Made by a program: the position numbers and the translations under genes | Assembly: GCA_046291875.1 (NCBI GenBank) | Contig: JBKBSF010000014.1 | Span: 4,569-68,568, forward strand | From: Bacteroidales bacterium | Lineage (GTDB): Bacteria; Bacteroidota; Bacteroidia; Bacteroidales; UBA7960 | Direction: 5' to 3' | DNA length: 64,000 nucleotides | Part shown: one piece after another, positions 3,711 to 59,646 of the stretch | How positions within the stretch are numbered: the stretch's first letter is position 1 | How the letters are laid out: each line of letters starts with the position of its first letter | Notes under the pieces: model-generated | The model's input: only the letters and a program-made list of their open reading frames with translations | Databases searched by the model: none | Told to the model about the DNA's origin: nothing

Positions 3711-5672
3711 ATGGAAGAAAACAAACAAAACATCACGGGCTTGCCCGAGAATGCCTATTCGGAACTTAAACCCGGCGAAGAGTACATTCCGGTAATGGCT
3801 CCCGACAAGATTTACCCCGAGGTAAATTTCCGCTCGGTATCATTGGGTTTGCTTATGGCAGTGATCTTTTCGGCGGCTGCCGCTTACCTGGGATTGAAGA
3901 TCGGGCAGGTTTTTGAAGCCGCCATCCCCATTGCCATCATCGCAGTGGGTTTGTCAACCCTTGCCAAGAGAAAAAATGCACTGGGCGAAAACGTGATCAT
4001 CCAGTCCATCGGTGCCAGTTCGGGAGTAATTGTGGCCGGAGCCATCTTTACCCTGCCCGCACTGTACATCCTTGACCTGGAGGCCCATTTCTACCAGGTA
4101 TTCTTCTCCTCATTGCTGGGGGGCTTCCTGGGCATCCTTTTCATCATCCCCTTCCGCAAGTATTTTGTGGCCGAGATGCATGGCAAGTACCCCTTCCCCG
4201 AAGCTACCGCCACCACAGAGGTGCTGGTATCGGGCGAGAAAGGCGGCGATCAGGCCAAAGTGCTGCTCTTTAGCGGTCTGATTGGCGGGTTGTACGATTT
4301 TATCATCGCCACCTTCGGCTGGTGGGCAGAGGAATTCTCCACCCGTGTACTCCCCTATGGTGAGGCACTGGCCGACAAAGCCAAGCTGGTTTTCAAGCTC
4401 AACGTAGGAGCCGCCATTGTGGGGCTGGGCTATATCATCGGATTGAAATATGCGGTGATCATCTGCGCCGGATCCTTTGTGGGCTGGTTTGTGATCATCC
4501 CCATGATTGCCCATGCTGCCGAGATGTTCGGAGGTATAGAGGCCATTACCGGGGCAAGTCCTGAAACCATCTTTGCACAGTATGTGCGTATGATCGGTAT
4601 CGGAGGTATTGCCATGGCCGGTGTGATCGGTATCATCCGCTCTTCCAAGGTAATCCGTACGGCCATCAGCCTGGCGGTGAAAGAGACCTTCAGCAAGCAT
4701 GCCAACAGCGATAACAACCTTCGTACCCGTCGCGATCTGCCCATGAGCATCATCCTGGGAGGTATATTGGTTACCGGCCTGTTGATCTTTATCTTCTTCC
4801 AGTTCGGCGTAGTGCACAACCTGGGCCATGCGTTGCTGGCGCTGGTTATCGTAATGATCATCTCCTTCCTGTTTACCACCGTGGCAGCCAATGCCATTGC
4901 CATTGTAGGTACCAACCCGGTATCGGGTATGACCCTGATGACCCTTATCATCACTTCGCTGGTGATGGCGGCAGCCGGATTGAGCGGCACCTCAGGTATG
5001 GTGGCAGCCCTTATCATCGGGGGTGTGGTATGTACTGCCCTGGCCATGGCCGGCGGCTTCATCACCGACCTTAAGATCGGGTACTGGCTCGGATCATCGC
5101 CCTACAAACAGCAGGGATGGAAGTTCCTGGGTACTGTGGTTTCTGCAGCTACCGTTGGGGGTGTTATCATCATCCTGAACCAGACTTACGGTTTCAAAGG
5201 CGAAGGAGCACTGGTAGCTCCCCAGGCCAATGCCATGGCTGCCGTAATTGAACCCATGATGACCGGCGGTTCGGCCCCCTGGTTGCTCTATGCTGCCGGC
5301 GCTGCCCTCTCGCTCATCCTTACCATGTTGGGTATTCCTGCCCTGGCTTTTGCACTGGGTATGTTTATCCCCATTGGCCTCAACACTCCTCTGCTGGTGG
5401 GCGGTATCATCTCTTACTATGTAACCAGCCGCAGCCAGGATCAGAAACTCAACAATGCACGCAAAGAACGCGGAACTCTTATTGCCAGCGGGTTTATTGC
5501 CGGGGGTGCCCTCATGGGCGTAATCAGTGCTATCCTTAAATTTGGCGGACTGGATGTGGAAGCCCACAACTGGGTGGCATCCAACGGTGCCCAGTACCTG
5601 GGATTGGTAATGTTTACTCTGCTCTGTGTGTACCTCTACAGAAATGCGCTGAAAGCCAAAAAAGAAGATTAA
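3711..5672 (+). CDS. OPT-family oligopeptide transporter (multi-pass membrane protein)
   Basis: 653-aa polytopic membrane protein whose N-terminal region (LKPGEEYIPVMAPDKIYPEVNFRSVSLGLLMAVIFSAAAAYLGLKIGQ) and size match the bacterial OPT family; peptidase T follows immediately. Confidence 0.7.
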   Translation: MEENKQNITGLPENAYSELKPGEEYIPVMAPDKIYPEVNFRSVSLGLLMAVIFSAAAAYLGLKIGQVFEAAIPIAIIAVGLSTLAKRKNALGENVIIQSIGASSGVIVAGAIFTLPALYILDLEAHFYQVFFSSLLGGFLGILFIIPFRKYFVAEMHGKYPFPEATATTEVLVSGEKGGDQAKVLLFSGLIGGLYDFIIATFGWWAEEFSTRVLPYGEALADKAKLVFKLNVGAAIVGLGYIIGLKYAVIICAGSFVGWFVIIPMIAHAAEMFGGIEAITGASPETIFAQYVRMIGIGGIAMAGVIGIIRSSKVIRTAISLAVKETFSKHANSDNNLRTRRDLPMSIILGGILVTGLLIFIFFQFGVVHNLGHALLALVIVMIISFLFTTVAANAIAIVGTNPVSGMTLMTLIITSLVMAAAGLSGTSGMVAALIIGGVVCTALAMAGGFITDLKIGYWLGSSPYKQQGWKFLGTVVSAATVGGVIIILNQTYGFKGEGALVAPQANAMAAVIEPMMTGGSAPWLLYAAGAALSLILTMLGIPALAFALGMFIPIGLNTPLLVGGIISYYVTSRSQDQKLNNARKERGTLIASGFIAGGALMGVISAILKFGGLDVEAHNWVASNGAQYLGLVMFTLLCVYLYRNALKAKKED

Positions 5673-42817: not shown

Positions 42818-45800
42818 TCACCCTTTTTTCTTCTCACTGAGCACTTTGCGAATGCCCTCCAGGCTATCCACAAACAAAGTCATCTGACCAATCACCTGTG
42901 CCATACGGTCGGCATCGCCCAGGCCCCTGATGCGATTATTTTTCACAAAAGTATCCTTGATGAGCTGCCAGCGTTGTTGGCGTATTTCGTCCAGAAGTTC
43001 CATAATCTCGAAAAGCTTGAGCATATTGGCTTCGGCTCCGGAGGTGAGGGTTTGCGATTCGTTCTGATAATGGCTCAGAAGCAATTGCAGCACCTCTTCA
43101 TCATTGAGGATCGGCACAACCTGGCTCATGAGCTTGTTCATATCGCGGTAAGACCCCTGGAGTTTGAAGGGAGGCTCCACACGATAATCGTCGGCCATGG
43201 CAGCAGAAGCAATGTATTGTGCATTCACTTTGAGTACCACATCGCGGATTTGCATACACTTTTTGAGTACCTGCACACAATCCTGGATCTCCTGCGTGGA
43301 GAGGTTCCCCTCCATATCGGGCAATGCACCCTCCTCATTCTCAACAAAACGAACCAGCTTGTAAAGGTTTTCCATGCTGAATCGGGTAAGCGATTTGAGG
43401 AATGGATTGGAGGTGAGCCCATTCTCGATAAGGCTCAGGTTAAACAGATCCTGGCGGTTGGTGGTCATATCTCCCAGGTTGTAAATATCGGCCCGGTTGG
43501 AGAGCATATCGGGTATCTGGAATTTCTCTCCACTTTCGGTATAGGGGTTTCCGGCCATCACCACACAAAAACGTTTGCCTCTGAAATCGTAGGTTTTGGC
43601 CTGCCCGTTGTATACCCCATCCATTTTGCGCTGGGCATCGGACAGGGAAATAAATTTCTGCAGAAACTCGGTGTTGCAATGCTGTATATCATCCAGGTAG
43701 AGCATTACATTATCGCTCATTTCAAAGGCAAGGTTGAGCTTCTGGAGCTCCTGCCGTGCAGCAGCATTGCGAGCTTCCGCAGGATCTACCGAAGTGATCT
43801 CGTGCCCCAGCGAAGGCCCGTTGATCTTCATAAAGATCAAACCCAAACGATCGGCAACATATTCCATCAGGGTGGTTTTCCCATAGCCCGGAGGGGAGAT
43901 CAACAGAAGCATCCCCGAGCGGTCGGAGCGTTTATCCTGTCCATAAGCTCCGATCTGCCTTGCAAAGTTGGCACCTATAAGCGGGAAATATACTTCGTTG
44001 ATGAGCTTGTTGCGCACAAAAGAGGTAAGCACCTGTGTTTTGAACTCATGAAGCCGAAGGTTTTTCTTCTTCTCTTCAATCAACTGGTGTTTAAGCTGTT
44101 GCAGCTGCAGGAAACGCGGTTGTACAACCTGAATGAAGTGGCGCAAACGATCTGACAGCCGATGAAAATCGAACACATAAACCTTATCGCTGGCATCTGC
44201 CGGCAACGACCGCAATCCTTCTATGTTTTGCACCCCGCTCAGATGCAGTATATAATCCGGTTCGGAAGAATCGGGCATAAGACACGAAGTAAGCTCATCG
44301 ATGAGATATCCTTTGGCTTTCTTGCCTTTGGCATTGAGGAATGTGGTAACCCAGGAACGAGAGAGATGCCAAAGGGCCTCCGGAAAGGGTTCCAGCCCTT
44401 TCTGGGCTTCTGCAAAGATGATGTCTGCATTTTTCTCGCGCAGGTATTTTTTGAAATCCTTCAGCAGGTCAGCGGCATGTTTATCCAGGGCAAATCCGGG
44501 AGTGGCCTGCTCTTCGGCCAGGTAGGTTGCTGCAAGCAACGGGTCGGTTTCGGTAAAGAGCTGATGCTCCTGCGAGAAAGCAGTAATAGACTGAGCCAGC
44601 TTGGCAAGAAGGTGCTTGTAGTTTTCTTTTTGCTCAAACACCTGCTGCATCAGGTTGATAAACACAAACTGCTTTTTGAAATAGTCCTTTTTGTCCTGGG
44701 GTGCATAGTACCAGAAGATCCTGGCCAGCACCCTGGCGGCAGCCGGATATCGAAGCATCCCCAGGTCGCGGTGTTTTTCGAGCAGGTTCTGCAGCAGTGG
44801 CAATGCATCGCTGTCGTGCACCCCTTTTACAAATCCTTCACCGTAATTCGATCCCATATAGTCGGCAATGGCTTGTACCAACTGTTTCTCTTCATAGATT
44901 TTGTAGGGGTCGAGGTTTTCAAACACTTTCCAGGCCAGGTATTCGGCCCTGGCCACCAGGCGGTTTTCTGAGGGCAGCTGCTGCTCCCATACATCCTGCA
45001 ACTGATCTATGATGGCACTGTTGATGGGCTCGTAAAAGGAGGTGCCGGTAAGATGGTAAAAGTAGCTGCGATCTTTCAGAACCAGGGTCAGATCGAGGGG
45101 TTGGGTATTTACGGCAAACCGGTGTTCACCCATACGGATCACATTGTCGCCATCTTCAAAAAGCTCTTTGCGATCTTTCAGGGCCCGCACAGACTCCTGC
45201 TGCAAAACCTGTATCTGGTTGCGAAGGTCTTCAGATTTAGCAGAGTCATCAAGCTTCTCCAGCTGATCGGCAATGTCTCTTACTTTCTCGATCATCAGAT
45301 CGGATGCGAAATATCCGTTGATCTCGGTTTCGGAGGTAAGGCTCTTTGCCTTGTTGGCAATCCCTTTGAGGATTCGCTGGGCAGATCCGAACAAGGTATT
45401 GGTGCGGCGGTTGCGGGCTTCGGTCAGACTCACCTTCCGGGTTTCGAAGGCAGCATATACAGCCTCACGCTTTTCGGTGATCTTTTCGGAAAAATCTTCA
45501 TAATCGGCAAACTTACCCTCCAGCTCTTCAAGCTGTATGGAGAGCCGCGTAAGATACTCATCGCATTTGGCAGGTTCGGTGGCCAGCTCCATAAAGTTTA
45601 CCACCGACTGTTCAAAAAGGGTCATCTGTGCCTGGAAGTCGGCACGTGCTTCCTTCTCGCCCAATTGCCGGCGTTTGTTGTTCAGGGCCTGGCGCTGCTG
45701 ATTGAGGCGTGAGAAAATCAGGGAGATATTCTCAATGATTTTGGTGGAATGCGAAGTATCTTCAATCTTAAGGTTGTTGATGATATCGATGAGCAGTTCA

Positions 45801-47659
45801 AGCTTTTGTGCCAGCTCATCGAAGCGGGTTTCGAGCTTGCGGGCATCTACCACTTTGGTAAGTTGCTCCACCATGCCCTCCAGCTCATCCATGCTTTGCT
45901 GGTAGTAGGCCAGAGCATTGTCTTGCAGCAGAAAATCCACACAACCACTGGCAAGCAATTCAGCCCTTTCGGCAATTTGTTTTTCCAGGGCAGCCACCAC
46001 CTCCATGTTGATATAGCGCAGGTTGCGCAGGCCAATGATCTCTCCCCTGATACCCCGCATGCGGGCCAGCAGAGAAACATACTGATCGAGGGTATCGAAG
46101 CTGGCACTGCGGGTATCAAAGAGGATCTTTTCCACCGTTTGGGAAACTTTCTCCAGTGCTGCAGCCGTATTGCGCCTTATCTGCACCACCTTCTCAAACT
46201 CATCGATGGCCGACATGGCAACCTTCCTGAGTTGTTTGAGCGGCTGCTGCAGGCCTGCCCCGGTTTCATTCTTAAGCCAGAAGTAGCCATCCATGATCGC
46301 CTGGCTCTTCTGCAAAATATCTTTGTAAAGACCCTGGTAGGAGTCCTCTTTGCTGAGCAAAACGATGAGTTCCTGTACCTCGGCCATTGCCTTTACAATG
46401 GCCTTGTTGCCGATCTTGTAAAGCTCGTGGTCCTGGTACTGGGTACCGGGCAATACCTCACGGGTGTAAGGTGTTTGCCAGATCTGGATCAGGTGGTGCC
46501 TGCCAGGATCGGTTTCTTTGTTGAAATAGCACAGCTCGCCCTTATCGAACAAGGTATAACCATTGCAGAAGATGGGCGTTTTTACGGTTTGCTCAATAAC
46601 GTTGTACGACAAAATAACAAAGTCGTGGTTCTTCTCTTCGTAAAACACAAAAAGAAAATCCTCGCCATTGGGCGACTGTATCCTTTGGAGGAATTTAACC
46701 CCTTCGATGCGCCTGTCGAAGATCTTGTATTCGCCCGTTTGCAGGTAATAGCCGTTGGAGAGGATGATCCCCTGATCGTCGGGCAACAAAATACCCGCAT
46801 CTCTGAGAGTATCTACCCTTACCACATTTTTAATCCGATGGTTGAAAATGAAGTAGCGATCCTCTTCCAGGTAAGGTTTAATTTTGAGCAACACAATATT
46901 TCCCAGGTCGCAGAAATGGATCTCACCATCATCGAGCGACTGGTCTTTTTGCTCTACATCTTCACGGTAAATCCCCAGGCCATCTTCGGTATTGTCTTCC
47001 ACCTTTATGGTAAGATCTCCCTGTACGGTTTCCACAAACACTTTGTCGGCAATGGATACATGAGGATTTTTGCCTATCCGCTGCATATCGCGTGTGGCTT
47101 TGGTCCAGGTAAACTCATGCTGATTGGGAAAACGAACCTCTGCAGCACTGCGCGAGTCTATATATACCAGTTCGGTATCGCGGATCAGCCATTTGAATGC
47201 TTTAACATCGGAGGGGCTGTCGGAGAGCTGGAAGAGCATGTAGAGGAAGTTTTCGCGGACGGCGAATCGGGAAAACCGGGTATGGCGAAAGAACTTATAG
47301 AGGTTCTGTAGCTCATTGGCAAAATCCTTATCCTTAATGATATCCAGAGGTGCCGGATGAAACTCGTTTTCCTGGAATTTGTAAACACTGAAAACATCAG
47401 AGATCTCCAGAATAGTTTTCAACCCCAGCCTTACGTTGTATCCCAGGAGGCATACCCCGGCAACTGATACCAGGTCGCGGGCCAGGCAGTGGTGTTCGGT
47501 ATCTACCCTTACATTGGAAACCAGTTTAAAGTCGATGGCCCCAAATACTTTCTGGCGCTCTTTGTTGAGGAGTTGAAGCTGTTCGGCAAGCGCGCGGCGT
47601 TGTTCCTGCAGGCGGCTCTGTATGATTTCGTATGTACCTTTTTCTATTGTGTTGTCCAT
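42818..47659 (-). CDS. Giant (1613 aa) protein with a MoxR/AAA_5-class AAA+ ATPase module near the C-terminus, a long central coiled-coil region and a large N-terminal region of unknown fold
   Basis: Walker A LLLISPPGYGKTTLMEY (about nt 43871-43900), Walker B VMLYLDDIQHCN (about 43683-43700), MoxR-like sensor region FCVVMAGNPYTESGEKFQIPDMLSNRADI. Start taken at the ATG 47659 (MDNTIEK) rather than the ORF-track 47728. It lies co-directional with, and 94 bp downstream of, the flotillin gene. Confidence 0.7.
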   Translation of the reverse strand: MDNTIEKGTYEIIQSRLQEQRRALAEQLQLLNKERQKVFGAIDFKLVSNVRVDTEHHCLARDLVSVAGVCLLGYNVRLGLKTILEISDVFSVYKFQENEFHPAPLDIIKDKDFANELQNLYKFFRHTRFSRFAVRENFLYMLFQLSDSPSDVKAFKWLIRDTELVYIDSRSAAEVRFPNQHEFTWTKATRDMQRIGKNPHVSIADKVFVETVQGDLTIKVEDNTEDGLGIYREDVEQKDQSLDDGEIHFCDLGNIVLLKIKPYLEEDRYFIFNHRIKNVVRVDTLRDAGILLPDDQGIILSNGYYLQTGEYKIFDRRIEGVKFLQRIQSPNGEDFLFVFYEEKNHDFVILSYNVIEQTVKTPIFCNGYTLFDKGELCYFNKETDPGRHHLIQIWQTPYTREVLPGTQYQDHELYKIGNKAIVKAMAEVQELIVLLSKEDSYQGLYKDILQKSQAIMDGYFWLKNETGAGLQQPLKQLRKVAMSAIDEFEKVVQIRRNTAAALEKVSQTVEKILFDTRSASFDTLDQYVSLLARMRGIRGEIIGLRNLRYINMEVVAALEKQIAERAELLASGCVDFLLQDNALAYYQQSMDELEGMVEQLTKVVDARKLETRFDELAQKLELLIDIINNLKIEDTSHSTKIIENISLIFSRLNQQRQALNNKRRQLGEKEARADFQAQMTLFEQSVVNFMELATEPAKCDEYLTRLSIQLEELEGKFADYEDFSEKITEKREAVYAAFETRKVSLTEARNRRTNTLFGSAQRILKGIANKAKSLTSETEINGYFASDLMIEKVRDIADQLEKLDDSAKSEDLRNQIQVLQQESVRALKDRKELFEDGDNVIRMGEHRFAVNTQPLDLTLVLKDRSYFYHLTGTSFYEPINSAIIDQLQDVWEQQLPSENRLVARAEYLAWKVFENLDPYKIYEEKQLVQAIADYMGSNYGEGFVKGVHDSDALPLLQNLLEKHRDLGMLRYPAAARVLARIFWYYAPQDKKDYFKKQFVFINLMQQVFEQKENYKHLLAKLAQSITAFSQEHQLFTETDPLLAATYLAEEQATPGFALDKHAADLLKDFKKYLREKNADIIFAEAQKGLEPFPEALWHLSRSWVTTFLNAKGKKAKGYLIDELTSCLMPDSSEPDYILHLSGVQNIEGLRSLPADASDKVYVFDFHRLSDRLRHFIQVVQPRFLQLQQLKHQLIEEKKKNLRLHEFKTQVLTSFVRNKLINEVYFPLIGANFARQIGAYGQDKRSDRSGMLLLISPPGYGKTTLMEYVADRLGLIFMKINGPSLGHEITSVDPAEARNAAARQELQKLNLAFEMSDNVMLYLDDIQHCNTEFLQKFISLSDAQRKMDGVYNGQAKTYDFRGKRFCVVMAGNPYTESGEKFQIPDMLSNRADIYNLGDMTTNRQDLFNLSLIENGLTSNPFLKSLTRFSMENLYKLVRFVENEEGALPDMEGNLSTQEIQDCVQVLKKCMQIRDVVLKVNAQYIASAAMADDYRVEPPFKLQGSYRDMNKLMSQVVPILNDEEVLQLLLSHYQNESQTLTSGAEANMLKLFEIMELLDEIRQQRWQLIKDTFVKNNRIRGLGDADRMAQVIGQMTLFVDSLEGIRKVLSEKKKG

Positions 47660-47753
47660 GAAGATAATTGGCAAATGAATGAATAGAAACCACCGGCGGG
47701 CCTGGCACAAAAGAGCCCGCCAGTGCAATTGAGGGGTTATTCAGAAGCGGGGA

Positions 47754-49775
47754 TTAGCCCAGTTTCTTCTTATCAAGGCCCAGATCTTTGGCCATACTGA
47801 GCAGGTTTGACAAAAACCCCTGGTCTTCTTCGCTGGCCTTCAGCTGCATCTGTGCGATGAGGGCAGCAATGGAAAGGTTTTTCAGGTTCTCGCTGGTAAT
47901 GCCGTACTTGTCGGCAATTTCCCTGATGCGATCCATGAGGTTGGCAGTGCCTGGCTCGCCATTGCCCAACAGGGAAGTTTTGATCTGATCGATGGTTTGA
48001 GAATGCTCTACCAACTTGTCAATTCCCTTGGCATGCGATATTTGCCTGATGAGGTTTTCGAAGAAGGTATTGTCGCCACCCACGATATCGATCTTGGCGG
48101 TTTTGAATGCTTCGGCAAGTACCTTGGCCTGTGCATCGGCAATATCCTTCTGGATGCTGATCTGGGCAAGTTCTACCTCTTTCTCCTTGGAGAGTTTCAG
48201 TCTGAACTCTTCGTGCTCTTTGCCGGCATCGTTGAGTTGTTTCATGGCACCCGCCTTTTCCTGGATACCCCTGGCTTCGGCTTTGGCTTTTTCTTCGATC
48301 ACTTCGGCTTCTACCAAACCTTCTTTGCGTTTTGCTTCGGCCATCTTTTCCACTACAGCGGCATCTACAAATCCCTGGCGCTCCTGCGCATCGGCCTTGG
48401 CATGCATTACCTGTGCTTCCGACAAACCCAGTGTGGCTTCTTCCTTGGCTTTGGCATCGGCAATGATTTTGCGCGCTTCAGCATCCTTATCGGCGGCTTC
48501 CTTGCGGGCATTGGCCTCCACCAGGATACGCTGGGCATCAAACTTGGCAGCCTTCTCTTTGGCTTCGGCAGATTTCACCTCTTCGATCATGTTTCTTTCG
48601 GCCTCTTTGGCAGCCTCAATGAGGGTAACATCCTTCTGGCGGTTGGCTTCCTTGAGAGCTTCCACATCCTTGATCTTCTCCTGCTCTTCCACCACGGTTT
48701 TCTGCATGGCCACACGTTCGCGGATGGTATCCTGGATATTTTTCTTCTCTACTTCAATGGCCTTTTCTTTTTCTATCTGGGCCAATGATACGATGCGTTC
48801 CCTTTCAGTGGCTTCCAGATCGCGGTCTTTCTTCACACGCTCCAGCTCTACCGCTTCGGCTCTTTGTTTGTTCTTTTCGGCGATGATGATCTGGCGTTGC
48901 TTGTTTTGCTCCTGAATCTCCAGTTGTTCTTCGGTGCTGATCTTAACGGTTTCTGACCGAAGCTTCTCTTCTGCAGTTACCTTATCGATCTCTGCCTGCT
49001 CGCGGGCTTTGATGGTTTCTACCTCGCGGCGTTGCGATTCTTCTTTCTCCTTTAGCTGCTTCTCGAGCTCCAGGATCGCTTCGCGGGCTTCCACATCCTG
49101 CTTCTTGATGGTCTTCTCCTCATCGCGGCGGATAAGGTTTGCCTTTACATTCTGCACAGCAGTAAGTTCAGTAATCTTTTTGATACCTTCCGCATCGAGA
49201 ATGTTGTTGGGATCGAGATTTTCGATCTTGGTCTGTTCCAGGTAGTCGATGGCACAGTCGTCGAGTACATATCCATTGAGGTCGGTACCAATGATATCGA
49301 TGATCTCATCGCGAAACTCGCGTCGTGCTTCATAGAGTTCGATAAACTCAAACTTCTTACCCACACTCTTGAGGGCTTCGGAGAATTTGGCTTCGAAAAG
49401 GCTTTCGAGGGTTTCGTGGTCGGACGCCCTTGCACAGCCAATGGTTTGGGCCACATTGATAATATCCTGCACCGACTTGTTTACCCTGACAAAGAAGGCC
49501 ACTTTGATATCGGCCCGCATATTGTCCTTGCAGATAAGGCCGTCCTTGTTCATACGTGAGATCTCCAGCTTTTTCACGGAGATATCCATGATCTCTTCTT
49601 TGTGAAGAATGGGAATAACCAGTCCGGCATTGAAAAAGATTTTTACACCACCCTGGCCGGTGCGTACCAGCACCCTGCCCTGGCTTACCTTTTTGTACAT
49701 CGAAATAAGCCACATGAGCAGGCCGATGAGTACCACCACGCCCAGGAAGGCCACTACATAAAAAGATTCAATCAT
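47754..49775 (-). CDS. Flotillin/SPFH (band-7) family protein with a long Glu/Lys/Ala-rich coiled coil (YqiK-like)
   Basis: N-terminal TM segment plus SPFH domain (…VSQGRVLVRTGQGGVKIFFNAGLVIPILHKEEIMDISV…) and a heptad-repeat region of about 350 aa. Confidence 0.85.
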   Translation of the reverse strand: MIESFYVVAFLGVVVLIGLLMWLISMYKKVSQGRVLVRTGQGGVKIFFNAGLVIPILHKEEIMDISVKKLEISRMNKDGLICKDNMRADIKVAFFVRVNKSVQDIINVAQTIGCARASDHETLESLFEAKFSEALKSVGKKFEFIELYEARREFRDEIIDIIGTDLNGYVLDDCAIDYLEQTKIENLDPNNILDAEGIKKITELTAVQNVKANLIRRDEEKTIKKQDVEAREAILELEKQLKEKEESQRREVETIKAREQAEIDKVTAEEKLRSETVKISTEEQLEIQEQNKQRQIIIAEKNKQRAEAVELERVKKDRDLEATERERIVSLAQIEKEKAIEVEKKNIQDTIRERVAMQKTVVEEQEKIKDVEALKEANRQKDVTLIEAAKEAERNMIEEVKSAEAKEKAAKFDAQRILVEANARKEAADKDAEARKIIADAKAKEEATLGLSEAQVMHAKADAQERQGFVDAAVVEKMAEAKRKEGLVEAEVIEEKAKAEARGIQEKAGAMKQLNDAGKEHEEFRLKLSKEKEVELAQISIQKDIADAQAKVLAEAFKTAKIDIVGGDNTFFENLIRQISHAKGIDKLVEHSQTIDQIKTSLLGNGEPGTANLMDRIREIADKYGITSENLKNLSIAALIAQMQLKASEEDQGFLSNLLSMAKDLGLDKKKLG

Positions 49776-49790: not shown

Positions 49791-50444
49791 TTAAGGTTGA
49801 TATTTCTGAACAAGAAAGAATTTCCGGTCTGGCGATTCTTCGAGAATGATTACGGTATCGTTGTAAGGGATGGGTTCTCCATCGATGGAGCGGGCATACA
49901 CCCTGATCACATCTTTCATAACATGTACCTCTATCTGCCCCAGGCGGTTCTGCCCCATGGGCGAGATTACCCGGCCGGTTTTGCCAATGAAATCGATGGG
50001 TTCTTCTCCTTTGTGGTTAAACATGGCATAGAGCTTCACAAAAGGTTTTGCCACTACTTTGGTAACCAGCATACTGGCAATAAACCCAGGCACATACACC
50101 GCAAAACCCAGTATGTTGTGCGAGATTCCCAGGATGGCCGTAACGTTTACATTGATCAGCCACATGGAGAACACCACCAGGGTAATGATGAAGATGATGG
50201 GCAGCTCGCCAATGTAAAAAAACTTCAGCATGGCATTCCAGAAACCGTCGCCATCCGGATTTCCGGCCTCGGGTTTTGAGATATCGCCGGTGTCGGCATC
50301 AAAATCCACATCGGCATCGGTATCGGCCAGATCAAAGTCGAACCCTGTAAAGATCACCACCAGCCAGTACAAGGTAACGAAGATAACCAGCAGGCTCAGG
50401 ATGAAGTTGGCCGGAGCAAAGGCAATATGAAACAGTTTTTCCAT
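49791..50444 (-). CDS. NfeD/YqiJ-like membrane protein (OB-fold partner of flotillin)
   Basis: N-terminal TM segments, an acidic DFDLADTDADVDFDAD loop and a C-terminal OB-fold-like region (…GKTGRVISPMGQNRLGQIEVHVMKDVIRVYARS…). Confidence 0.7.
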   Translation of the reverse strand: MEKLFHIAFAPANFILSLLVIFVTLYWLVVIFTGFDFDLADTDADVDFDADTGDISKPEAGNPDGDGFWNAMLKFFYIGELPIIFIITLVVFSMWLINVNVTAILGISHNILGFAVYVPGFIASMLVTKVVAKPFVKLYAMFNHKGEEPIDFIGKTGRVISPMGQNRLGQIEVHVMKDVIRVYARSIDGEPIPYNDTVIILEESPDRKFFLVQKYQP

Positions 50445-50495: not shown

Positions 50496-51206
50496 TTACC
50501 CATTGGTGGGGGGTTCGTTCAGGCCCATTTGCTTTTTGAGTTCTTTCAGCTCATCATCCAGAGACAGGTTTTCCAGGGTTTCGCTAACGCGCTGATCGGC
50601 GGAGCGCTGCCCGGCCAACTCGCCATAGGCTTCGGCCAGAGCTTCATCCTGCATCACCTTTTCCTTCATGCGCTCCAGCATCGATACAACGCCGGTGCTG
50701 TCCATGCTGGTCATCTGCTTGTTGATCTTCACAGTAGCACTGCTCACCTTAACGCGGGCTTTGAGGGTGCGAAGCTCATTCTCCCATTGCTTGATCTCAG
50801 CCTTAATCCGCGCCACATTCTGCTCCAGGGTAGCAACCTGCTTTTCAAGGCTGGCAACATCTTCTGTAATGATGCGGATCTCCTGCGTAACTTTGGCTTT
50901 GCGCTTGAGGTTTTCCTTCACAAGATCGTCGGCCTGAGCTGCATCCAGTTCGCCTTGCTGGGCCTTGCGCAGCAACAGCATCGATTTATTGTGCAGATCT
51001 TCCTCCAGGCTGCTTTGCTCAGTAAGTTCTTTTTTCCGGCGGATATGCATGGCTTTTACTTCGGCCAGCGAGCGCATTGCACTCTCCTGGTTGTCCTGCA
51101 TATCGCGAAGCCCCTGTTCGATCATTTTGATGGGATCTTCCAGCTTATCGATGGCAGAATGGGTCTCTGCCTGCCCTATTTTAAACAATCTGCGTAAAAC
51201 TTTCAT
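50496..51206 (-). CDS. pspA: PspA/IM30 (phage-shock protein A / Vipp1) family protein
   Basis: MKVLRRLFKIGQAETHSAIDKLEDPIKMIEQGLRDMQDNQESAMRSLAEVKA… helical coiled-coil protein with the PspA N-terminal signature. Confidence 0.85.
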   Translation of the reverse strand: MKVLRRLFKIGQAETHSAIDKLEDPIKMIEQGLRDMQDNQESAMRSLAEVKAMHIRRKKELTEQSSLEEDLHNKSMLLLRKAQQGELDAAQADDLVKENLKRKAKVTQEIRIITEDVASLEKQVATLEQNVARIKAEIKQWENELRTLKARVKVSSATVKINKQMTSMDSTGVVSMLERMKEKVMQDEALAEAYGELAGQRSADQRVSETLENLSLDDELKELKKQMGLNEPPTNG

Positions 51207-51218
51207 GACTATATATTT

Positions 51219-51614
51219 TTAGTGTGATTTTGAAAACGATAGAATTTCATTGGAATATTCGGAGAGTAAGAGAGCCAGGGAGTTTATGGTGCTTTCCAGC
51301 TCTTTAAGATCGAGCGTTTCCACCTGTAGGGTGTTGCGAAAAATCACCTTCTCTCCCGTTTCATCCAGCACAAATGCTCCGTGCACGATGTCGCGGTTTT
51401 TGATGAGCAACTTTCTGAAAATGGAAGTATCCTCCTTCACATCAAAAAGGTACTGCTCAATAATAACTATGGGCGCTGCAACTCCGATCACCATATTCTT
51501 CACCCCCATCTCCTCCTCATCAATCACAAGGAGGTTGTCAGCTTCATTTTCATACAGAACAGAGTAGCCCAGTTCGGTAACATAGTCTTTTACTTTATAG
51601 AAATAGGTATCCAT
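51219..51614 (-). CDS. YbjN-like (putative sensory-transduction regulator / chaperone-like) domain protein
   Basis: About 130 aa; …YSVLYENEADNLLVIDEEEMGVKNMVIGVAAPIVIIEQYL…FVLDETGEKVIFRNTL… resembles YbjN. Start assumed at the ATG (MDTYFYK…) within the longer ORF-track call. Confidence 0.5.
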   Translation of the reverse strand: MDTYFYKVKDYVTELGYSVLYENEADNLLVIDEEEMGVKNMVIGVAAPIVIIEQYLFDVKEDTSIFRKLLIKNRDIVHGAFVLDETGEKVIFRNTLQVETLDLKELESTINSLALLLSEYSNEILSFSKSH

Positions 51615-51672
51615 ACATGAGGTTTTTATAGGGTTTTTTATAGTATTGGTCTTGCAAAGAATTCGGTGCACA

Positions 51673-51768: not shown

Positions 51769-52398
51769 ATGTCAGTATTTGGAAAGAATATCAGGAAGAT
51801 ACGCAGTGTAAGAGGCCTCACACAGGCCCAGCTGGCGGAGATGATCGATGTAAGCCGCGGCCAGATCAGCTCCTACGAAGAGGGTCGTGCAGAACCCAAA
51901 ATCGAAACCATACTAAAAACGGCAGAGGTGTTTCATATCAACACCGACCTGCTGTTGCGCGGCAACCTCACGGTAAATCAGCTGGCAGGATTTACCCTGC
52001 CCGATGTAAGTAAAAGCAAGCCGGCGTCGCAGCAGGAGCAGGAACCGAGGCTTTTCAGGTTCTTACCCCGCAACACCCGCGAAATACCCGCCCACGAGCT
52101 GGCTCCCAACCCATGGGTAAAGAAGAACGACATCGTGCTGGCAGTACCGGCCAAGGTGCTCATGGGGAAAATGATGATCATTCATGCGGCAAAAGGATCC
52201 TTTATGGGCCGGATAAGTTTTGAGGATGCCAAAAACGTTAGCATTGATACGGCCGAAAAAACCTTACTCCAGCCCAGGGAAACCCTCGAAGTGCTGGGTA
52301 TATACTCGCCTGTGCAGAACCTATCGCCCTTGGAAGAAAAACTGCTCAACCTGGAAGCCAGGGTACAAAAACTCGAAATGCAATTAAAAAGCCGCTGA
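51769..52398 (+). CDS. XRE-family (Cro/C1 HTH) transcriptional regulator with a C-terminal domain of unknown function
   Basis: IRKIRSVRGLTQAQLAEMIDVSRGQISSYEEGRAEP HTH motif; divergently transcribed from the ybjN-pspA-nfeD-flotillin-ATPase operon. Confidence 0.8.
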   Translation: MSVFGKNIRKIRSVRGLTQAQLAEMIDVSRGQISSYEEGRAEPKIETILKTAEVFHINTDLLLRGNLTVNQLAGFTLPDVSKSKPASQQEQEPRLFRFLPRNTREIPAHELAPNPWVKKNDIVLAVPAKVLMGKMMIIHAAKGSFMGRISFEDAKNVSIDTAEKTLLQPRETLEVLGIYSPVQNLSPLEEKLLNLEARVQKLEMQLKSR

Positions 52399-54183: not shown

Positions 54184-57100
54184 ATGACCCGATCTTCCTT
54201 TGTCCTTGCCTTCGCTCTGCTTCTTTCCACTTTTTCATGGGGGCAGGATTTTGCCAAAATCCCTGCAACACATCAAAGCCATCCTGAGCTGGGCACCACC
54301 CGCCCTGCATCGGTAATCTCTCTACTGGCCTACGAGCTGGTGCATTTGCGCACCACCCATTCGCGCACTTTTCTCAATGCCAATAAAACCCGTACGCTGG
54401 TGTATTCTACAGCTCCCTTACATTACCTTGACGACAATGGTTTCTATATTTCCCTACAAAACAGACTAACAGCCCGGGAGCCCGGCCAATACCAAATGCC
54501 TGATATGAACCCTGTGCATCACTTCAATGAGCTTACAGGACGCACCGGCTTTTCCCATGCAGGTGCAACCATGCATATCGAACCCCAAAAGGTAACCTTT
54601 GGTTCTTCGGAGCAAACCCAAACCCAAGTTGCAACCCATCAAAGCCGGACCAGGGAGGTATCCGCCAGCCTGATCAACACCCGGGAGATTTTTCCGGGTA
54701 TCGATATGCGGCAGGAGTTTTTCGATTTTGCCCAGAAAACCCATTATATCCTCCGCCATTCTTCCGATATCCTCTACTGGGCCGATCATATGGTTGTAGA
54801 AAATCTTATTACTATTCCCGACAACCTGCGCCTGGTTCTGGTGGATGAGGAGCAAATGGAAGTTGTAAACAGTGAGGGAGATCCTGTTTTTCGGTTTCAT
54901 CCGGCCGTGGTTACCGACCAAACACCCATTGCTGCCAAATTCAGCCATCAGAGGCCCCACAGTATGGTGCAGTACGAGCTGGAGCAAAACACTCCCGGAC
55001 AGTATATTTGGCGTATGGTTGTAGATGCTCAATGGTTGCGTGCTCCTGAGCGGGTTTTCCCGGTGATCGTTGATCCGGTGATCTCCATTGTGAACAATGA
55101 GGTGGTTCCCAGTTGTGTTTTCCCAAATTATCAATCCAATACGCTGCAGATCAATGTACCTCAGGGAGAAACCATCCTCTGGACCGATATCACCTACGAT
55201 TTTGTGGCTGTGTCCGGGTCCAGTGCATGGATATCAGACCAACGCAGTTATGTATCGGGCAGTGCAGGCGAAACAGCTGTTTTGTCAGAATCCATTGATA
55301 CTCCGGGCACACATACTTACATCATCAATAATTCTCATATTGCCAACGGGGTTTCTCCGGGTCAGATCGAGCTCACCTTCCATGCCTCACGCAATTGGGG
55401 CGGATCGGGCTGCAATGCCTCATTCAACTTTATCAACCGGCGCACCGTTGAGGTGCATTATGGCACCATCGAGTTTGGCGATGGGCCACTATACATCAAC
55501 GAATACAGTGCTTCCAACCGCACCCATTACGATGGTTTCGGACGCACCGAAGACTGGATTGAGCTTTTCAATGCCGATACTGAAAACTATTTTAACCTGG
55601 AAGGTTATTACCTGAGCAACGATCCCGATGATCCGCTGAAGTGGCAGATCCCTGCAGCCATCATCCCTCCGGGGGGCAAAGTGCTGGTATACTGCTCCAA
55701 CCGCGATTTTGCCAGTGGTACAGTGCTGCATGCCAATTTTAATCTAACCCAGTTGCGCCCCGATGCCATTGTATTGTCGAACCCTCAAGGCGAACTCATG
55801 GAATCGGTGCAGATGGAGAGGACCCAGATCAACCATTCGCGTGGGCGGATTACCGATGGAAGCCCTCAATGGGGTATCTTCACCCACCCTACTCCGCTGC
55901 AGCCCAATGCACAGGCGAGGCTGGCCTACACCTCCACACCTGCCTTCAGCCTGCCTGCAGGAAGCTATTCGGGTACTGTACAGGTGGAGATCACCTCAGA
56001 GAACCCCAACGAAATCATACGGTACACCCTCAACGGTTCTACCCCCAACACTTCTTCGCCCATCTACACTGCACCCATCTCCCTGACCTCTACCACCGTA
56101 TTGAGGGCCAGGGCTTTTCATAACAACCCCGACACCATTCCGGGCTTCATCGAAACAGCCACCTATTTCTTTGACGAAAACCACCAGTTGCCCATATTTT
56201 CCTTTGCAGGTGATACGGATCTGTTGCAACTTTTCAATGGAAACAACTCACTGCGGCCCCTGGGCAACTTTGAGTTCTTCGATCAGGAGGGTGTATTCCA
56301 GGATAAAAATTTCGGCGATTTCAACAAACATGGCAACGACTCCTGGAGCTACCCACAAAGGGGAGTTGATTTTATATCGAGAGATGACTATGGCTACCAA
56401 CGCCGGCTCGAATACCCCTTCTTTGCTACCAAAGACCGCACGAGGTTTCGCCGCCTGATGGTAAAAGCTGCCGCCAACGATAATTATCCTTTTGAGAATG
56501 GTGGGGCACACATCAGAGACTCTTATATCCAAACCTTATCGCAGCTGGCGGGCCTGGATCTCGACGAACGCAGCTCTACCAACGTAATTGTATATCTCAA
56601 CGGGCAATACTGGGGAGTTTATGATCTCAGAGAAAGGGTCGACGACAATAATTTCACCGACCATTACTATGGCCAGGATTATCTCTATCGCGACAGCGAT
56701 AACTACCTTCAGTTCATCAAAACCTGGGGCAATACCTATGCTCATTTTGGCAATCAACCCGCCATTCAGGCCTGGAGCCACTTGAAGAGCTATGTGGCCA
56801 GCAACAATATGGGCGAGAAAGCTCATTTCGATTATGTGGACTCCCAACTCAATATCCAGAGCCTGATCGACTATTTTGTACTAAACTCCTTTGTGGTATC
56901 GCGCGACTGGCTCAACTACAACACGGGATGGTGGCGCGGCAGGAACCCGGAGGGTCAGGCACAGCAATGGCGCTATTATGTGTGGGATATGGAAGCAGCC
57001 ATGGGCCATTTCCATAACTATACAGGGCTGCCCAATGCCACTGCCACTGCCCCGCCCTGCCAGGCCGAAAACCTCAATGTGGGCGATGGACACACACAGA

Positions 57101-59646
57101 TTATCCGGAAACTGATCCAGGAAAACCCCCAGGTAAGGGAAAGGTATATTACCCGCTACATCGATCTGCTCAACACCCACTTCAGCTATGATAATGCGGT
57201 GGCAGTGCTCGACAGTATGGTAAACAATATTGCTCCCGAGATGCCCCGGCAAATCCAGCGCTGGGGGGGCAATATGCAAACCTGGCAAAACAATGTGCAG
57301 AACATCCGCAATTTCCTGCAGGCTCGCACCCAATACCTGGTAAACGGGTTGAAGGATTGCTACAACCTTACCGGCCCCTATGCCACGCAAATCAGCGTAT
57401 ACCCGCAGCAGGCAGGTACCGTAAGGATGAATTCTGTGCAACTTTCTGATTTCCCATTTCAGGCTTCACTGTATGGCAATATCACCACTAAGCTGGAGGC
57501 ACAGGCCGCCACAGGCTTTATCTTCAGCCACTGGGAGATCAATGGCAGCATACAAACCCCGCTGCCATCCGGAAGAACCATTGACTTGCTGCTTACACAG
57601 GCCGGTAGTATCACAGCCCACTTTGTTCCATTTCCCGGAGATGATTTCGAGCTGATCCATTACTGGCATTTCAATAACCTTCCTGAAGGAGAACTTACCC
57701 AGGTACACGCTGATTTTTCCATTGCAGGTATGCCCGGCACACTTTCCTATCCCGGCAGCGGAACTGGTTTTATGGATATTCGTACCCACAGAGATGAAGA
57801 TCCGGTTTCGGATTTCAACCTGCGAATGGGGCAGCAACCTGCCCAGGGAGCCGTGCTAAGGGCACGCAACCCTGCACATACCCGTGAGTTGCTCTTCAAA
57901 GCACCCTCAACGGGCTATGCCAGTCTGGTAGTAAGCTATGCGGCCACACGCACCAGCAGTGGTGCACAGAAACAGCGGTTCCAGTATTCGCCCGATGCAG
58001 GCAACACCTGGATTACCTTTGGGGCCGATATGGACATCCCCTTTATTGGAGAGTACGGTGTCGACCCCGAAGTGGGGATTTATGCCCACATTACCCTGGA
58101 TCTGTCGGAAATTGAAGCCATAAACAACAATCCTGATCTCAGATTCCGCATACTGGCCCTACCCCCGGGCAATGATAACACCAGTGGCAACCAGCGAATT
58201 GACAATTTCACTGTAGATGGCATACCCATGGGCGGAGAGGCTGTGCAACTGGCATTCTCACTGATCAACGACAACCTGCCCGTTTACACAATGGAGCCCT
58301 TTGATCTGTGGGTGATGGCTCAAGACGAAAACGGGCTCCCGGCACAGGCCCAACAGGACTATGCTGTATCTCTTAGCCTTGAAAATGGCAGTGGAAATCT
58401 CTCGGGGGTTCTGACGGCAATACTGGAGCAAGGTAATGCTTCGGTGCTGTTCGAAGGCATCACCTACAACACTGCAGAAACAGGTGTGGTGCTCAGGGCA
58501 GAGGCAGCAGGTCTTTCTCCGGCAATCTCCAACCCCTTCGATGTAACTACCCGAACCTGGCTGCTCGAGGTTACCCTCAATATACCAGACGCCGGAACCA
58601 TACCTGGCACCGGAGCCTATGCACAGGGAACTGAAGTAACCCTCGAAGCCATCCCCAATCCGGGATACACCTTCCTGCACTGGTCTTTTCAGTCCAGCAT
58701 ACTAAGTACCGATCTGGTATATACATTCATGATGCCTGCATCAGACCTTACTTTACAGGCTCATTTCACCGAAACCCTGCCCGACAATTACCAGCTGGTG
58801 CATTACTGGCATTTCAACACCCTTACCAACAGTGCTGTAAGCCAGGTGCAATCTGACTTTTCGGCCCAGGGACTCTCTGCCCTGATCACTTACCCCGGCA
58901 CTGGCGAAGGCTTTATGGACGGACGTACACACCGCGATGCCGACCCCGTATCTGACTACAACCTGCGGTTGGGGCAGGCACCGGCACAAGGGGCAGTGCT
59001 GAGGTTCAGAAATCCGGCACATACACGCGAATTGCGATTCCAGATCCCCTCCACAGGTTACAAAGACCTGATGGTAAAATATGCCACAACACGCACTTCC
59101 AATGGGGCTCAGCAGCAGCAGTTTCAATACTCACCCGATGGGGGCACCAGCTGGTTCAACCATGGAGATGTGCTGGAGGTACCTTTCATTGGTGAATTGG
59201 GAGTGGATCCTGAGGTTGGGGTATATGCTTTTGTCTCCCTTGATTTTTCAGGTATTGAAGAGGTAAACAACAACCCCGATCTGTATTTCCGGATACTCTC
59301 AACCGGCCCTGGCAGCGACAACAGCAGTGGTAACCAACGCATTGATAACTTCAGTGTTGATGGGATTCCTCTGAGTGGTGTATCAACCGACCCCATCCCT
59401 TTGCCCGAAGGAAAAATGACACTCAGCCCCAACCCTGCCCACAGCCATGTTACACTCCAGTTGCCTGAGGCTGTGCAGACCTGGATCCGGATTGTGGATA
59501 TCAACGGGCATGAGCTGCATCGATTCTTAATGACCGAAACAAGTTACCAGCTCGATGTTTCAGGGTTGGCCCCCGGTATGTACATTATACAGGCGCTGGG
59601 TGCAAATACAGGTCATTCATGGAATGCCAGGCTTATTATCCGGTAG
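54184..59646 (+). CDS. Giant (1820 aa) secreted CotH-kinase-family protein with a lamin-tail domain (LTD), chitobiase/hexosaminidase-C-like and List-Bact repeat domains, and a T9SS C-terminal sorting domain
   Basis: Signal peptide; LTD (…RTEDWIELFNADTENYFNLEGYYLSND…GGKVLVY); CotH region (…YPQRGVDFISRDDYGYQRRLEYPFF…VIVYLNGQYWGVYDLRERVDDNNF…); C-terminal …LSPNPAHSHVTLQLPEAVQTWIRIVDINGHELHRF…GMYIIQA… T9SS sorting domain. Confidence 0.75.
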   Translation: MTRSSFVLAFALLLSTFSWGQDFAKIPATHQSHPELGTTRPASVISLLAYELVHLRTTHSRTFLNANKTRTLVYSTAPLHYLDDNGFYISLQNRLTAREPGQYQMPDMNPVHHFNELTGRTGFSHAGATMHIEPQKVTFGSSEQTQTQVATHQSRTREVSASLINTREIFPGIDMRQEFFDFAQKTHYILRHSSDILYWADHMVVENLITIPDNLRLVLVDEEQMEVVNSEGDPVFRFHPAVVTDQTPIAAKFSHQRPHSMVQYELEQNTPGQYIWRMVVDAQWLRAPERVFPVIVDPVISIVNNEVVPSCVFPNYQSNTLQINVPQGETILWTDITYDFVAVSGSSAWISDQRSYVSGSAGETAVLSESIDTPGTHTYIINNSHIANGVSPGQIELTFHASRNWGGSGCNASFNFINRRTVEVHYGTIEFGDGPLYINEYSASNRTHYDGFGRTEDWIELFNADTENYFNLEGYYLSNDPDDPLKWQIPAAIIPPGGKVLVYCSNRDFASGTVLHANFNLTQLRPDAIVLSNPQGELMESVQMERTQINHSRGRITDGSPQWGIFTHPTPLQPNAQARLAYTSTPAFSLPAGSYSGTVQVEITSENPNEIIRYTLNGSTPNTSSPIYTAPISLTSTTVLRARAFHNNPDTIPGFIETATYFFDENHQLPIFSFAGDTDLLQLFNGNNSLRPLGNFEFFDQEGVFQDKNFGDFNKHGNDSWSYPQRGVDFISRDDYGYQRRLEYPFFATKDRTRFRRLMVKAAANDNYPFENGGAHIRDSYIQTLSQLAGLDLDERSSTNVIVYLNGQYWGVYDLRERVDDNNFTDHYYGQDYLYRDSDNYLQFIKTWGNTYAHFGNQPAIQAWSHLKSYVASNNMGEKAHFDYVDSQLNIQSLIDYFVLNSFVVSRDWLNYNTGWWRGRNPEGQAQQWRYYVWDMEAAMGHFHNYTGLPNATATAPPCQAENLNVGDGHTQIIRKLIQENPQVRERYITRYIDLLNTHFSYDNAVAVLDSMVNNIAPEMPRQIQRWGGNMQTWQNNVQNIRNFLQARTQYLVNGLKDCYNLTGPYATQISVYPQQAGTVRMNSVQLSDFPFQASLYGNITTKLEAQAATGFIFSHWEINGSIQTPLPSGRTIDLLLTQAGSITAHFVPFPGDDFELIHYWHFNNLPEGELTQVHADFSIAGMPGTLSYPGSGTGFMDIRTHRDEDPVSDFNLRMGQQPAQGAVLRARNPAHTRELLFKAPSTGYASLVVSYAATRTSSGAQKQRFQYSPDAGNTWITFGADMDIPFIGEYGVDPEVGIYAHITLDLSEIEAINNNPDLRFRILALPPGNDNTSGNQRIDNFTVDGIPMGGEAVQLAFSLINDNLPVYTMEPFDLWVMAQDENGLPAQAQQDYAVSLSLENGSGNLSGVLTAILEQGNASVLFEGITYNTAETGVVLRAEAAGLSPAISNPFDVTTRTWLLEVTLNIPDAGTIPGTGAYAQGTEVTLEAIPNPGYTFLHWSFQSSILSTDLVYTFMMPASDLTLQAHFTETLPDNYQLVHYWHFNTLTNSAVSQVQSDFSAQGLSALITYPGTGEGFMDGRTHRDADPVSDYNLRLGQAPAQGAVLRFRNPAHTRELRFQIPSTGYKDLMVKYATTRTSNGAQQQQFQYSPDGGTSWFNHGDVLEVPFIGELGVDPEVGVYAFVSLDFSGIEEVNNNPDLYFRILSTGPGSDNSSGNQRIDNFSVDGIPLSGVSTDPIPLPEGKMTLSPNPAHSHVTLQLPEAVQTWIRIVDINGHELHRFLMTETSYQLDVSGLAPGMYIIQALGANTGHSWNARLIIR
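57644..58236 (+). repeat. Intragenic tandem-duplicated module, copy 1 (~198 aa: DFELIHYWHFNNLPEGELTQVHADFSIAGMPGTLSYPGSGTGFMDIRTHRDEDPVSDFNLRMGQQPAQGAVLRARNPAHTREL…NQRIDNFTVDGIPMGG)
   Basis: Protein-level identity of about 65-70% with copy 2; each copy is preceded by a List-Bact-type repeat. Confidence 0.7.
58783..59380 (+). repeat. Intragenic tandem-duplicated module, copy 2 (DNYQLVHYWHFNTLTNSAVSQVQSDFSAQGLSALITYPGTGEGFMDGRTHRDADPVSDYNLRLGQAPAQGAVLRFRNPAHTREL…NQRIDNFSVDGIPLSG)
   Basis: See copy 1. Confidence 0.7.

Follow-up and report, generated by a model that had tools for sequence, protein, structure and literature searches.

Flotillins and the polymers formed by PspA and Vipp1 are established bacterial membrane-organizing and membrane-repair assemblies. 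FtsH, which is held in HflK/C cages, shows how an SPFH scaffold can be paired, both genetically and functionally, with an AAA+ machine. Structures of the HflK/C cages are cited in PMC13086221, and a 2025 review connects cup-like SPFH oligomers to the activation of PspA and states that a Vps4-like ATPase "appears absent in bacteria" (PMC7619361). Ravi et al. (mSystems 2024, PMC11237479) already described a flotillin operon that encodes an ATPase with a "beta-propeller + coiled-coil + AAA-ATPase" architecture, and they proposed that it remodels membranes or complexes in an ATP-dependent manner. Here we analyze a 1613-amino-acid ATPase from a Bacteroidales bacterium (assembly GCA_046291875.1, contig JBKBSF010000014.1) whose gene lies within a 64,000-nt stretch that we call the window (forward-strand positions 4,569-68,568 of the contig).

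This protein is a member of the "flotillin-operon ATPase" family of PMC11237479. It shares with that family the order of the genes, the divergent cHTH gene, the phylum, and the three-part architecture, and we found no substantive difference. The same paper reports that some Proteobacteria have a PLD gene and that shortened flotillin-YqiJ(-ATPase) operons occur elsewhere, and its Table S3 gives the context of Dokdonia donghaensis ANH61663.1, which includes a divergent "cHTH+Protease" gene. It contains no AAA+ clade, motif analysis, or experiments. Because the literature, Pfam, and PGAP already cover the family with its architecture and operon, we consider it to be known. A first-pass annotation of the DNA had called such proteins essentially uncharacterized in bacteria, which holds for experiments, but Pfam and PGAP catalog them and PMC11237479 describes their architecture and operon. 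What we add is the structural assignment of the ATPase module (AAA_5, nearest to CbbQ and NorQ), a middle domain, and counts of linkage to flotillin. With modest confidence, we favor the view that the protein is a soluble, cytoplasmic, single-module AAA_5-type ATPase at the end of a membrane-stress operon and that its ring remodels the flotillin/YqiJ scaffold and, secondarily, PspA.

The gene itself is real. The first-pass annotation placed a 1613-residue ATPase at 42818-47659 (leaving the strand, which is minus, unstated), and an uninterrupted open reading frame (ORF) spans 42818..47728 on that strand. From end to end, the protein is 100% identical to NCBI P0001, "MAG: DNA repair ATPase [Bacteroidales bacterium]". 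A database protein search gave more than 3,700 homologs at E<1e-5. When amino acids 851-1613 were searched exhaustively against 1.84 billion cluster representatives, 361 clusters (50% identity) matched at E<1e-30, and the count rose to 773 at E<1e-10; most full-length family members in this search have 1550-2036 amino acids, with the ATPase module at the same place. With thousands of homologs and invariant catalytic residues, the ORF is not due to chance.

Domains, motifs, and AAA+ class of the ATPase

The gene and the regions of its product are as follows.

42818..47659, minus strand: coding sequence of the ATPase including the stop codon, 1613 amino acids from the ATG at 47659 (ORF list and translation)
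46220..47659, minus strand: amino acids 1-480, Pfam DUF3686 region, with a helix (2-39), a beta-rich propeller-like body (45-395), and a helical bundle (412-479)
45158..46219, minus strand: amino acids 481-834, interrupted heptad-rich helices (heptad scan against shuffles)
45665..45919, minus strand: Pfam DUF7902 (PF25472), amino acids 581-665, within the heptad region (E=1.7e-24 and 2e-25)
44060..45157, minus strand: middle domain, amino acids 835-1200 (AlphaFold2 model, invariant columns)
43478..44059, minus strand: AAA+ alpha/beta core, amino acids 1201-1394
42821..43477, minus strand: AAA+ helical lid and terminal helical pair, amino acids 1395-1613

Among the matches listed in two homologue searches, precomputed domains give the layout DUF3686-DUF7902-AAA in 240 of 240 proteins. 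Conservation along the protein is highest over the AAA+ module and lowest at 1001-1150. Our structure models, made with AlphaFold2 (AF2), cover amino acids 1-480 and 835-1613. The model of 835-1613 is of usable quality (predicted local distance difference test, pLDDT, 86; predicted template modeling score, pTM, 0.71) and has a canonical AAA+ core, a beta-hairpin between Walker B and sensor 1, and a helical lid that runs to the C-terminus. We found no hydrophobic segment in the ATPase long enough to span a membrane (maximum KD19 1.38), and we therefore place the protein on the cytoplasmic side.

Several features of the earlier description needed correction. No motif had been recognized at the N-terminus, but amino acids 24-460 match Pfam DUF3686 ("ATPase involved in DNA repair") with E=6e-180; in the model of this region, a helix is followed by a divergent beta-propeller and then by a helical bundle. 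The next region had been described as an extended coiled coil. The heptad peptides that were quoted are in the translation (LRNLRYINMEVVAALEKQIAERAELLASG at about amino acids 540-568 and DLMIEKVRDIADQLEKLDDSAKSEDLRNQIQVLQQE at 787-822), and in a crude scan, four heptad-rich segments (483-515, 574-670, 687-736, and 781-816) exceed the 99th percentile of shuffles. Heptads are thus abundant in amino acids 481-834, but the region is interrupted and contains DUF7902, and the coiled coil is a prediction from that crude scan. The middle domain (about 370 amino acids) had been left out of the architecture altogether. In the AF2 model it starts with a small beta unit, continues with a helical domain that contains an invariant motif, and ends with another beta unit and a long helix. 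Finally, the separate C-terminal domain of about 230 amino acids, from which NRIRGLGDADRMAQVIGQ (amino acids 1575-1592) was correctly quoted, is largely the AAA+ lid plus a terminal helical pair, because the modeled lid continues to the C-terminus. The lid carries an inserted, less conserved segment and a sensor-2-like LQGSYR (amino acids 1500-1505, at 43145-43162). When the middle and C-terminal pieces were searched on their own against Pfam, there was no match even at E<=10.

The invariant motif of the middle domain, G946-x-H948-D949-x-D951-A952 (consensus "EGYxxGVHDxDA", at 44804-44824 on the minus strand), stands out within a domain that is otherwise poorly conserved. We considered and rejected an HD-phosphohydrolase: the conserved upstream histidine of such enzymes is not present in the alignment, so the motif is probably not part of an HD hydrolase; it might serve as an interface or in regulation.

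The catalytic motifs were compared across 68 homologs that are 27-51% identical to the query.

43871..43897, minus strand: Walker A, SPPGYGKTT, amino acids 1255-1263 (S1255 to T1262 invariant)
43679..43705, minus strand: Walker B variant, MLYLDDIQH, amino acids 1319-1327 (D1323, D1324, Q1326, and H1327 invariant)
43586..43627, minus strand: pre-sensor-1 beta-hairpin, amino acids 1345-1358 (AF2 strands 1345-1350 and 1353-1358, which are 511-516 and 519-524 in the model, offset +834)
43487..43558, minus strand: sensor 1, MAGNPYT (N1371), and candidate arginine finger, PDMLSNRAD (R1389) (N1371, P1372, and R1389 invariant)

The peptides quoted earlier for this core are all in the translation: GMLLLISPPGYGKTTLMEYV at amino acids 1249-1268, NVMLYLDDIQHCN at 1317-1329, and RFCVVMAGNPYTESGEKFQIPDMLSNRADI at 1363-1392. 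An alignment of homologs had been proposed as a check, and in it the Walker A lysine (K1261), the Walker B acids, and the candidate arginine finger (R1389) are invariant in all 68 sequences. So are T1262, R1344, and Q1501 to R1505, which with L1500 (at least 90% conserved) make up the LQGSYR of the lid. N1371, R1389, and R1505 lie at the expected places in the AF2 model, and we assigned the sensor and finger roles by position. Two substitutions characterize the DUF3686 ATPase family. The first glycine of Walker A is replaced by serine, and the catalytic position of Walker B is aspartate (D1324) rather than glutamate, followed by an invariant Gln-His (68 of 68 homologs). Because the Asp-Asp pair is invariant across diverse homologs, we regard it as a fixed trait of the family and not as a decayed site. 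Judging from these motifs, the ATPase looks active and ring-competent.

Which kind of AAA+ protein is it? The invariant SPPGYGKTT and MLYLDD, together with strands b1 to b5 in the AF2 core, place the module in the AAA+ superfamily. Three Pfam families match amino acids 1247-1376: AAA (31.5 bits, cut-off 21.2), AAA_5 (PF07728; 29.0 bits, cut-off 22; profile positions 2-127, or 126 of 139), and AAA_22 (28 bits). PF07728 is also precomputed for most homologs among the matches listed. (Pfam AAA_5 is the dynein-related subfamily and takes in CbbQ/NorQ, midasin, and McrB.) Other comparisons of sequence were ambiguous. Searches of the PDB with phmmer and with the family profile matched only about 70 residues around Walker A, in Rix7, NVL, p97, and RuvB. 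Aligning the AAA profile to E. coli RavA, YifB, ClpX, Lon, RuvB, FtsH, and McrB with hhalign did not discriminate among them (for example, RuvB 95.6% over 44 columns, Lon 86.8% over 130, and RavA 16%).

We therefore relied on comparison of folds to identify the clade. The top scores were for CbbQ (16.7, with 239 of 267 residues aligned at 3.5 Å) and NorQ (15.9), followed by the dynein motor (15.7), midasin (14.6), ClpA (13.6), and ClpB-D2 (13.1); NVL (12.8), HslU (12.2), Vps4 (12.0), and McrB (11.7) were lower. Foldseek gave similar E-values for RuvB, NorQ, CbbQ, MCM, and FtsH, and its best target-normalized TM-scores were up to 0.59 for NorQ and up to 0.51 for CbbQ, versus 0.34-0.38 for RuvB. 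The module also has the features of the AAA_5 type: a pre-sensor-1 hairpin, an "NP" sensor 1, and an arginine 18 residues further on, in "PDMLSNR". The first-pass annotation had assigned the ATPase to the MoxR/AAA_5 branch, and the Pfam match, the hairpin, and the fold all bear this out.

As for membership in the MoxR clade, the pre-sensor-1 hairpin is present and the closest structural neighbors are MoxR proteins. Between b2 and helix 2 (amino acids 1281-1298), the AF2 model has short helices and a loop, and a beta-hairpin is not apparent. Nor did we find a gene for a VWA-domain protein in the operon or its flanks, or in five distant loci that we inspected; the suggestion that such ATPases usually work with VWA or other adaptor domains thus finds no VWA counterpart nearby. 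Because the helix-2 beta-insert is not seen in the model and there is no gene for a VWA partner, we describe the module as AAA_5/MoxR-like in its modeled fold but stop short of counting the protein as a member of the MoxR family proper. The first-pass annotation had named a McrB-type restriction GTPase, or another well-characterized family, as the finding that would overturn it. We looked for this, and the closest match is not McrB with a McrC partner; no other such family was found. The marks of Vps4 and the classical clade (second region of homology, MIT domain) were not found either.

The same annotation likened the protein to dynein. In such a mechanochemical protein, a coiled-coil stalk would relay nucleotide-dependent movement to a distal binding domain, and the long heptad-rich segment, with the conserved DUF7902 at its center, would suit that role. 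But the protein has just one AAA module rather than six that are fused in a concatenated ring; the heptad-rich stretch stops about 400 residues short of this module, on its N-terminal side, and does not interrupt the lid; dynein is a poorer match than the small MoxR proteins CbbQ and NorQ; and no cytoskeletal partner is encoded nearby. We consider a dynein-like mechanism very improbable. Overall, the AAA_5/MoxR-like fold partly supports the earlier interpretation, and the analogy with dynein is not supported.

The ATPase gene is linked to a flotillin gene in at least seven phyla

The strongest functional clue comes from the neighboring genes, which were not considered in the first-pass annotation. 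In the window, the ATPase gene is the last gene of an operon whose order is CesT/Tir - PspA - YqiJ-like - YqiK-type flotillin - ATPase. The four genes upstream are on the same strand as the ATPase gene, with spacers of 12-94 nt, and a divergent gene precedes them.

47754..49775, minus strand: YqiK-type flotillin, 673 amino acids, with an N-terminal transmembrane segment, an SPFH domain, and a long E/K/A-rich coiled coil
49791..50444, minus strand: YqiJ/NfeD-like membrane protein, 217 amino acids (hhalign against E. coli YqiJ, probability 87.6%, E=3.5e-6)
50496..51206, minus strand: PspA/IM30 (bacterial ESCRT-III superfamily), 236 amino acids (PF04012, E=8.7e-37)
51219..51671, minus strand: CesT/Tir-like chaperone, 150 amino acids (PF22550, E=3.1e-52)
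51769..52398, plus strand: divergent Xre/Cro-type HTH protein (Pfam HTH_19 and HTH_3)

We compared 80 related loci from one-genome-per-species contigs (Bacteroidota, Planctomycetota, and Calditrichia). A flotillin gene lies directly upstream of the ATPase gene and on the same strand in 73 of the 80. For six of the seven loci without it, less than about 630 bases are available upstream of the ATPase gene, so that the neighbor could not show. The other genes of the operon are less constant: a YqiJ-like gene is found in 61 loci, PspA in 39, CesT in 35, and the divergent HTH gene in 35. All 35 loci with the HTH gene have PspA, and nearly all have CesT. Flotillin is the likelier primary partner, given that about half of the loci lack PspA.

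The pairing of flotillin and ATPase also occurs in Myxococcota. An Acidobacteriota locus has a Band_7 protein and then the ATPase, and in Streptomyces, a gene that PGAP names "flotillin family" or "SPFH domain" is followed by a "DNA repair ATPase". In Pseudomonas indica the order is DUF2170 - PspA - 213-amino-acid protein - 680-amino-acid protein - ATPase - PLD (PLDc_2). On pQBR103, a megaplasmid of Pseudomonas fluorescens SBW25, yjf genes are followed by an SPFH protein and the ATPase. The linkage between the ATPase and flotillin is thus near-obligate and extends to at least seven phyla.

The identity of the flotillin is clear from profile comparison. A profile of 25 orthologs matches E. coli YqiK in hhalign with a probability of 100% (E=8e-40); against the PDB, the profile of the 673-amino-acid protein matches QmcA alone (E=0.013). 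The Pfam models Band_7 and Flotillin miss this protein as well as 24 of the 24 homologs tested, which leaves a gap in any census of SPFH proteins in Bacteroidota and Planctomycetota that relies on domain models. The YqiJ-like protein has a weak match to Pfam NfeD (E=0.047).

These neighbors speak against the name that the family carries. If it were a DNA repair ATPase, it would be an SMC/Rad50-like coiled-coil ATPase acting on DNA, and the names from Pfam and PGAP, the weak matches to RuvB at the level of the P-loop, and a weak match to an S24 (LexA-like) peptidase in the divergent HTH protein of Aquimarina could be read that way. But at nearly all loci the neighboring genes encode membrane proteins and not repair factors; we found no DNA-binding, nuclease, or helicase domains with Pfam, NCBIfam, or the fold search; the similarity to RuvB is limited to about 44 columns around Walker A; and the module is AAA+ rather than an ABC-type SMC/Rad50 head. 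A literature search gave no paper that supports the name, and no paper was found on DUF3686, PF12458, or "DNA repair ATPase" together with flotillin. We give almost no credence to a role in DNA repair. As the label is attached to thousands of entries and has no support here, we advise a name based on genomic context.

PspA was first found as a phage-induced protein, and a large ATPase with a beta-propeller and a coiled coil resembles some defense NTPases. The ATPase might instead be an anti-phage or abortive-infection motor, that is, a large NTPase in which a sensing propeller and a coiled coil control a membrane or PLD effector. The PLD-family gene after the ATPase in Pseudomonas and the copy on megaplasmid pQBR103 would fit. 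However, PADLOC has no significant match for the five proteins of the operon (the best for the ATPase is mad8, with E=0.003, over the P-loop only), and PADLOC, PHROGs, and NCBIfam gave nothing useful for the ATPase. None of 50,697 phage records has a homolog of the ATPase; of 72,556 plasmid records, just 13 have one, and these are mostly chromids or megaplasmids. Furthermore, the order of the genes is stable across phyla and the surroundings are ordinary chromosomal DNA, whereas defense islands are typically variable. A role in defense seems improbable to us.

Somewhat less improbable, though still unlikely, is a MoxR-type maturation chaperone for a client other than the scaffold, as in CbbQO and NorQD, with flotillin as a mere membrane platform. 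CbbQ and NorQ are the closest folds, and the accessory enzymes vary by lineage (PLD; the glutathionylspermidine synthase family; a beta-lactamase-family protein and YbjQ). On the other hand, the VWA adaptor of such chaperones was found neither in the operon of the window nor in the five distant loci, and we see no conserved candidate client except flotillin and the YqiJ-like protein.

Some of these loci have further genes of their own. On pQBR103, a polyamine-type yjf operon (DUF2491, DUF350, DUF1190, and glutathionylspermidine-synthase-family genes) precedes flotillin and the ATPase. In Aquimarina agarivorans, a YbjQ-family gene (4480-4914) lies between PspA and the YqiJ-like gene, and a beta-lactamase-family gene (PF00144, 8375-9682) lies between flotillin and the ATPase; both insertions are lineage-specific accessory genes.

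The divergent HTH protein may regulate the operon. It resembles its Aquimarina counterpart, the one with the S24 match, over the first 75 residues only (59% identity); the C-terminal 130 amino acids of the window protein have no Pfam match. The 94-nt spacer between flotillin and the ATPase (47660-47753) contains, at 47691..47725 on the minus strand, a GC-rich hairpin followed by a U-rich tract (minimum free energy -27.1 kcal/mol, z -2.66). A simple terminator scan did not call it. Hairpins with unrelated sequence are present at the same position in loci L001, L003, L005, L011, L022, L041, L059, and L072, and the hairpin may be an attenuator or a 3'-end stabilizer that sets the ratio of flotillin to ATPase.

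The ordinary wider surroundings in the window include alr and an amidohydrolase gene. Separately, an 1820-amino-acid ORF (54184-59646, plus strand) has CotH kinase, lamin-tail, and chitobiase/Fn3-associated domains, Listeria-Bacteroides repeats, and a T9SS sorting domain. It is a large secreted or surface protein and is unrelated to the ATPase.

Proposed function and comparison with known systems

In our preferred reading, remodeling of the flotillin/YqiJ scaffold would proceed as follows. The AAA+ modules would assemble into a hexameric ring, as suggested by the invariant candidate trans-acting arginine and by the fact that the closest structural relatives are hexamers. The long N-terminal arms (beta-propeller, helical bundle, and heptad-rich helices) would dock this ring on the cytoplasmic side of the flotillin/NfeD assembly. 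ATP hydrolysis would then remodel the flotillin scaffold, whether by assembly, opening, disassembly, or extraction of a client, and where PspA is encoded, its ESCRT-III-like polymers would be remodeled too. The physiological trigger would be envelope stress. We infer the ring, the binding to flotillin and PspA, the direction of remodeling, and the trigger from the conserved motifs, the models, and the gene neighborhood. In this sense, its role would be analogous to that of Vps4 on ESCRT-III or, apart from the lack of a protease domain, to that of FtsH inside the HflK/C cages.

More tentatively, and with more doubt than conviction, we suggest that this is the missing bacterial scaffold-disassembly ATPase: a MoxR-type hexamer whose propeller-tipped arms grip a flotillin/NfeD cage or PspA and open or recycle it at the expense of ATP. 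If true, it would be a Vps4-like control point for the assemblies that form bacterial membrane microdomains and repair membranes. The idea of scaffold disassembly is outlined in PMC11237479; what is new here is the MoxR-type mechanism and a primary link to flotillin rather than to PspA. Among the matches listed in a literature search that combined MoxR with SPFH, flotillin, or stomatin, none mentions MoxR. In any case, a conserved, apparently active AAA+ machine that is tied to flotillin is a concrete candidate for remodeling flotillin and PspA assemblies.

Several observations weigh against remodeling of a flotillin scaffold by this ATPase. One locus (L058) has a full 10 kb flank without flotillin, and at another (L043), flotillin is unlinked, 6 kb away. 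With PspA encoded at 39 and CesT at 35 of the 80 loci, only about half in each case, PspA cannot be an obligate substrate. Flotillins do not generally need the ATPase, since E. coli yqiJK works without one. We saw no aromatic pore-loop motif in the sequence, and with no helix-2 beta-insert in the model, a threading mechanism is not implied. The aspartate at the position of the catalytic glutamate could make hydrolysis slow or regulatory. Also, a literature search found no experimental work on any family member.

How does the locus compare with systems that are better known? The E. coli YqiJ-YqiK pair is homologous to the two genes immediately upstream of the ATPase gene in the window. There is no ATPase gene after yqiK in E. 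coli, which implies that the ATPase is an addition that only some lineages have. FtsH, a classical-clade protein, is anchored in the membrane and has a protease domain, whereas the window ATPase appears to be soluble, is of the AAA_5 type in its modeled fold, and has no protease domain. The closest solved relatives of the ATPase module are CbbQ (PDB 6l1q) and NorQ (PDB 9qh4), which are hexameric remodeling ATPases. These are proteins of about 260 amino acids that act with a VWA partner (CbbO or NorD), while the window ATPase has 1200 extra N-terminal residues, is only 14-15% identical to them, and has DD rather than DE in Walker B. Unlike Vps4, the window ATPase has no MIT domain that we could find, and roughly half of the loci lack PspA. 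What recalls Vps4 and ESCRT-III is that an AAA+ ATPase is encoded together with PspA, a member of the ESCRT-III superfamily, which suggests ATP-driven remodeling of a polymer.

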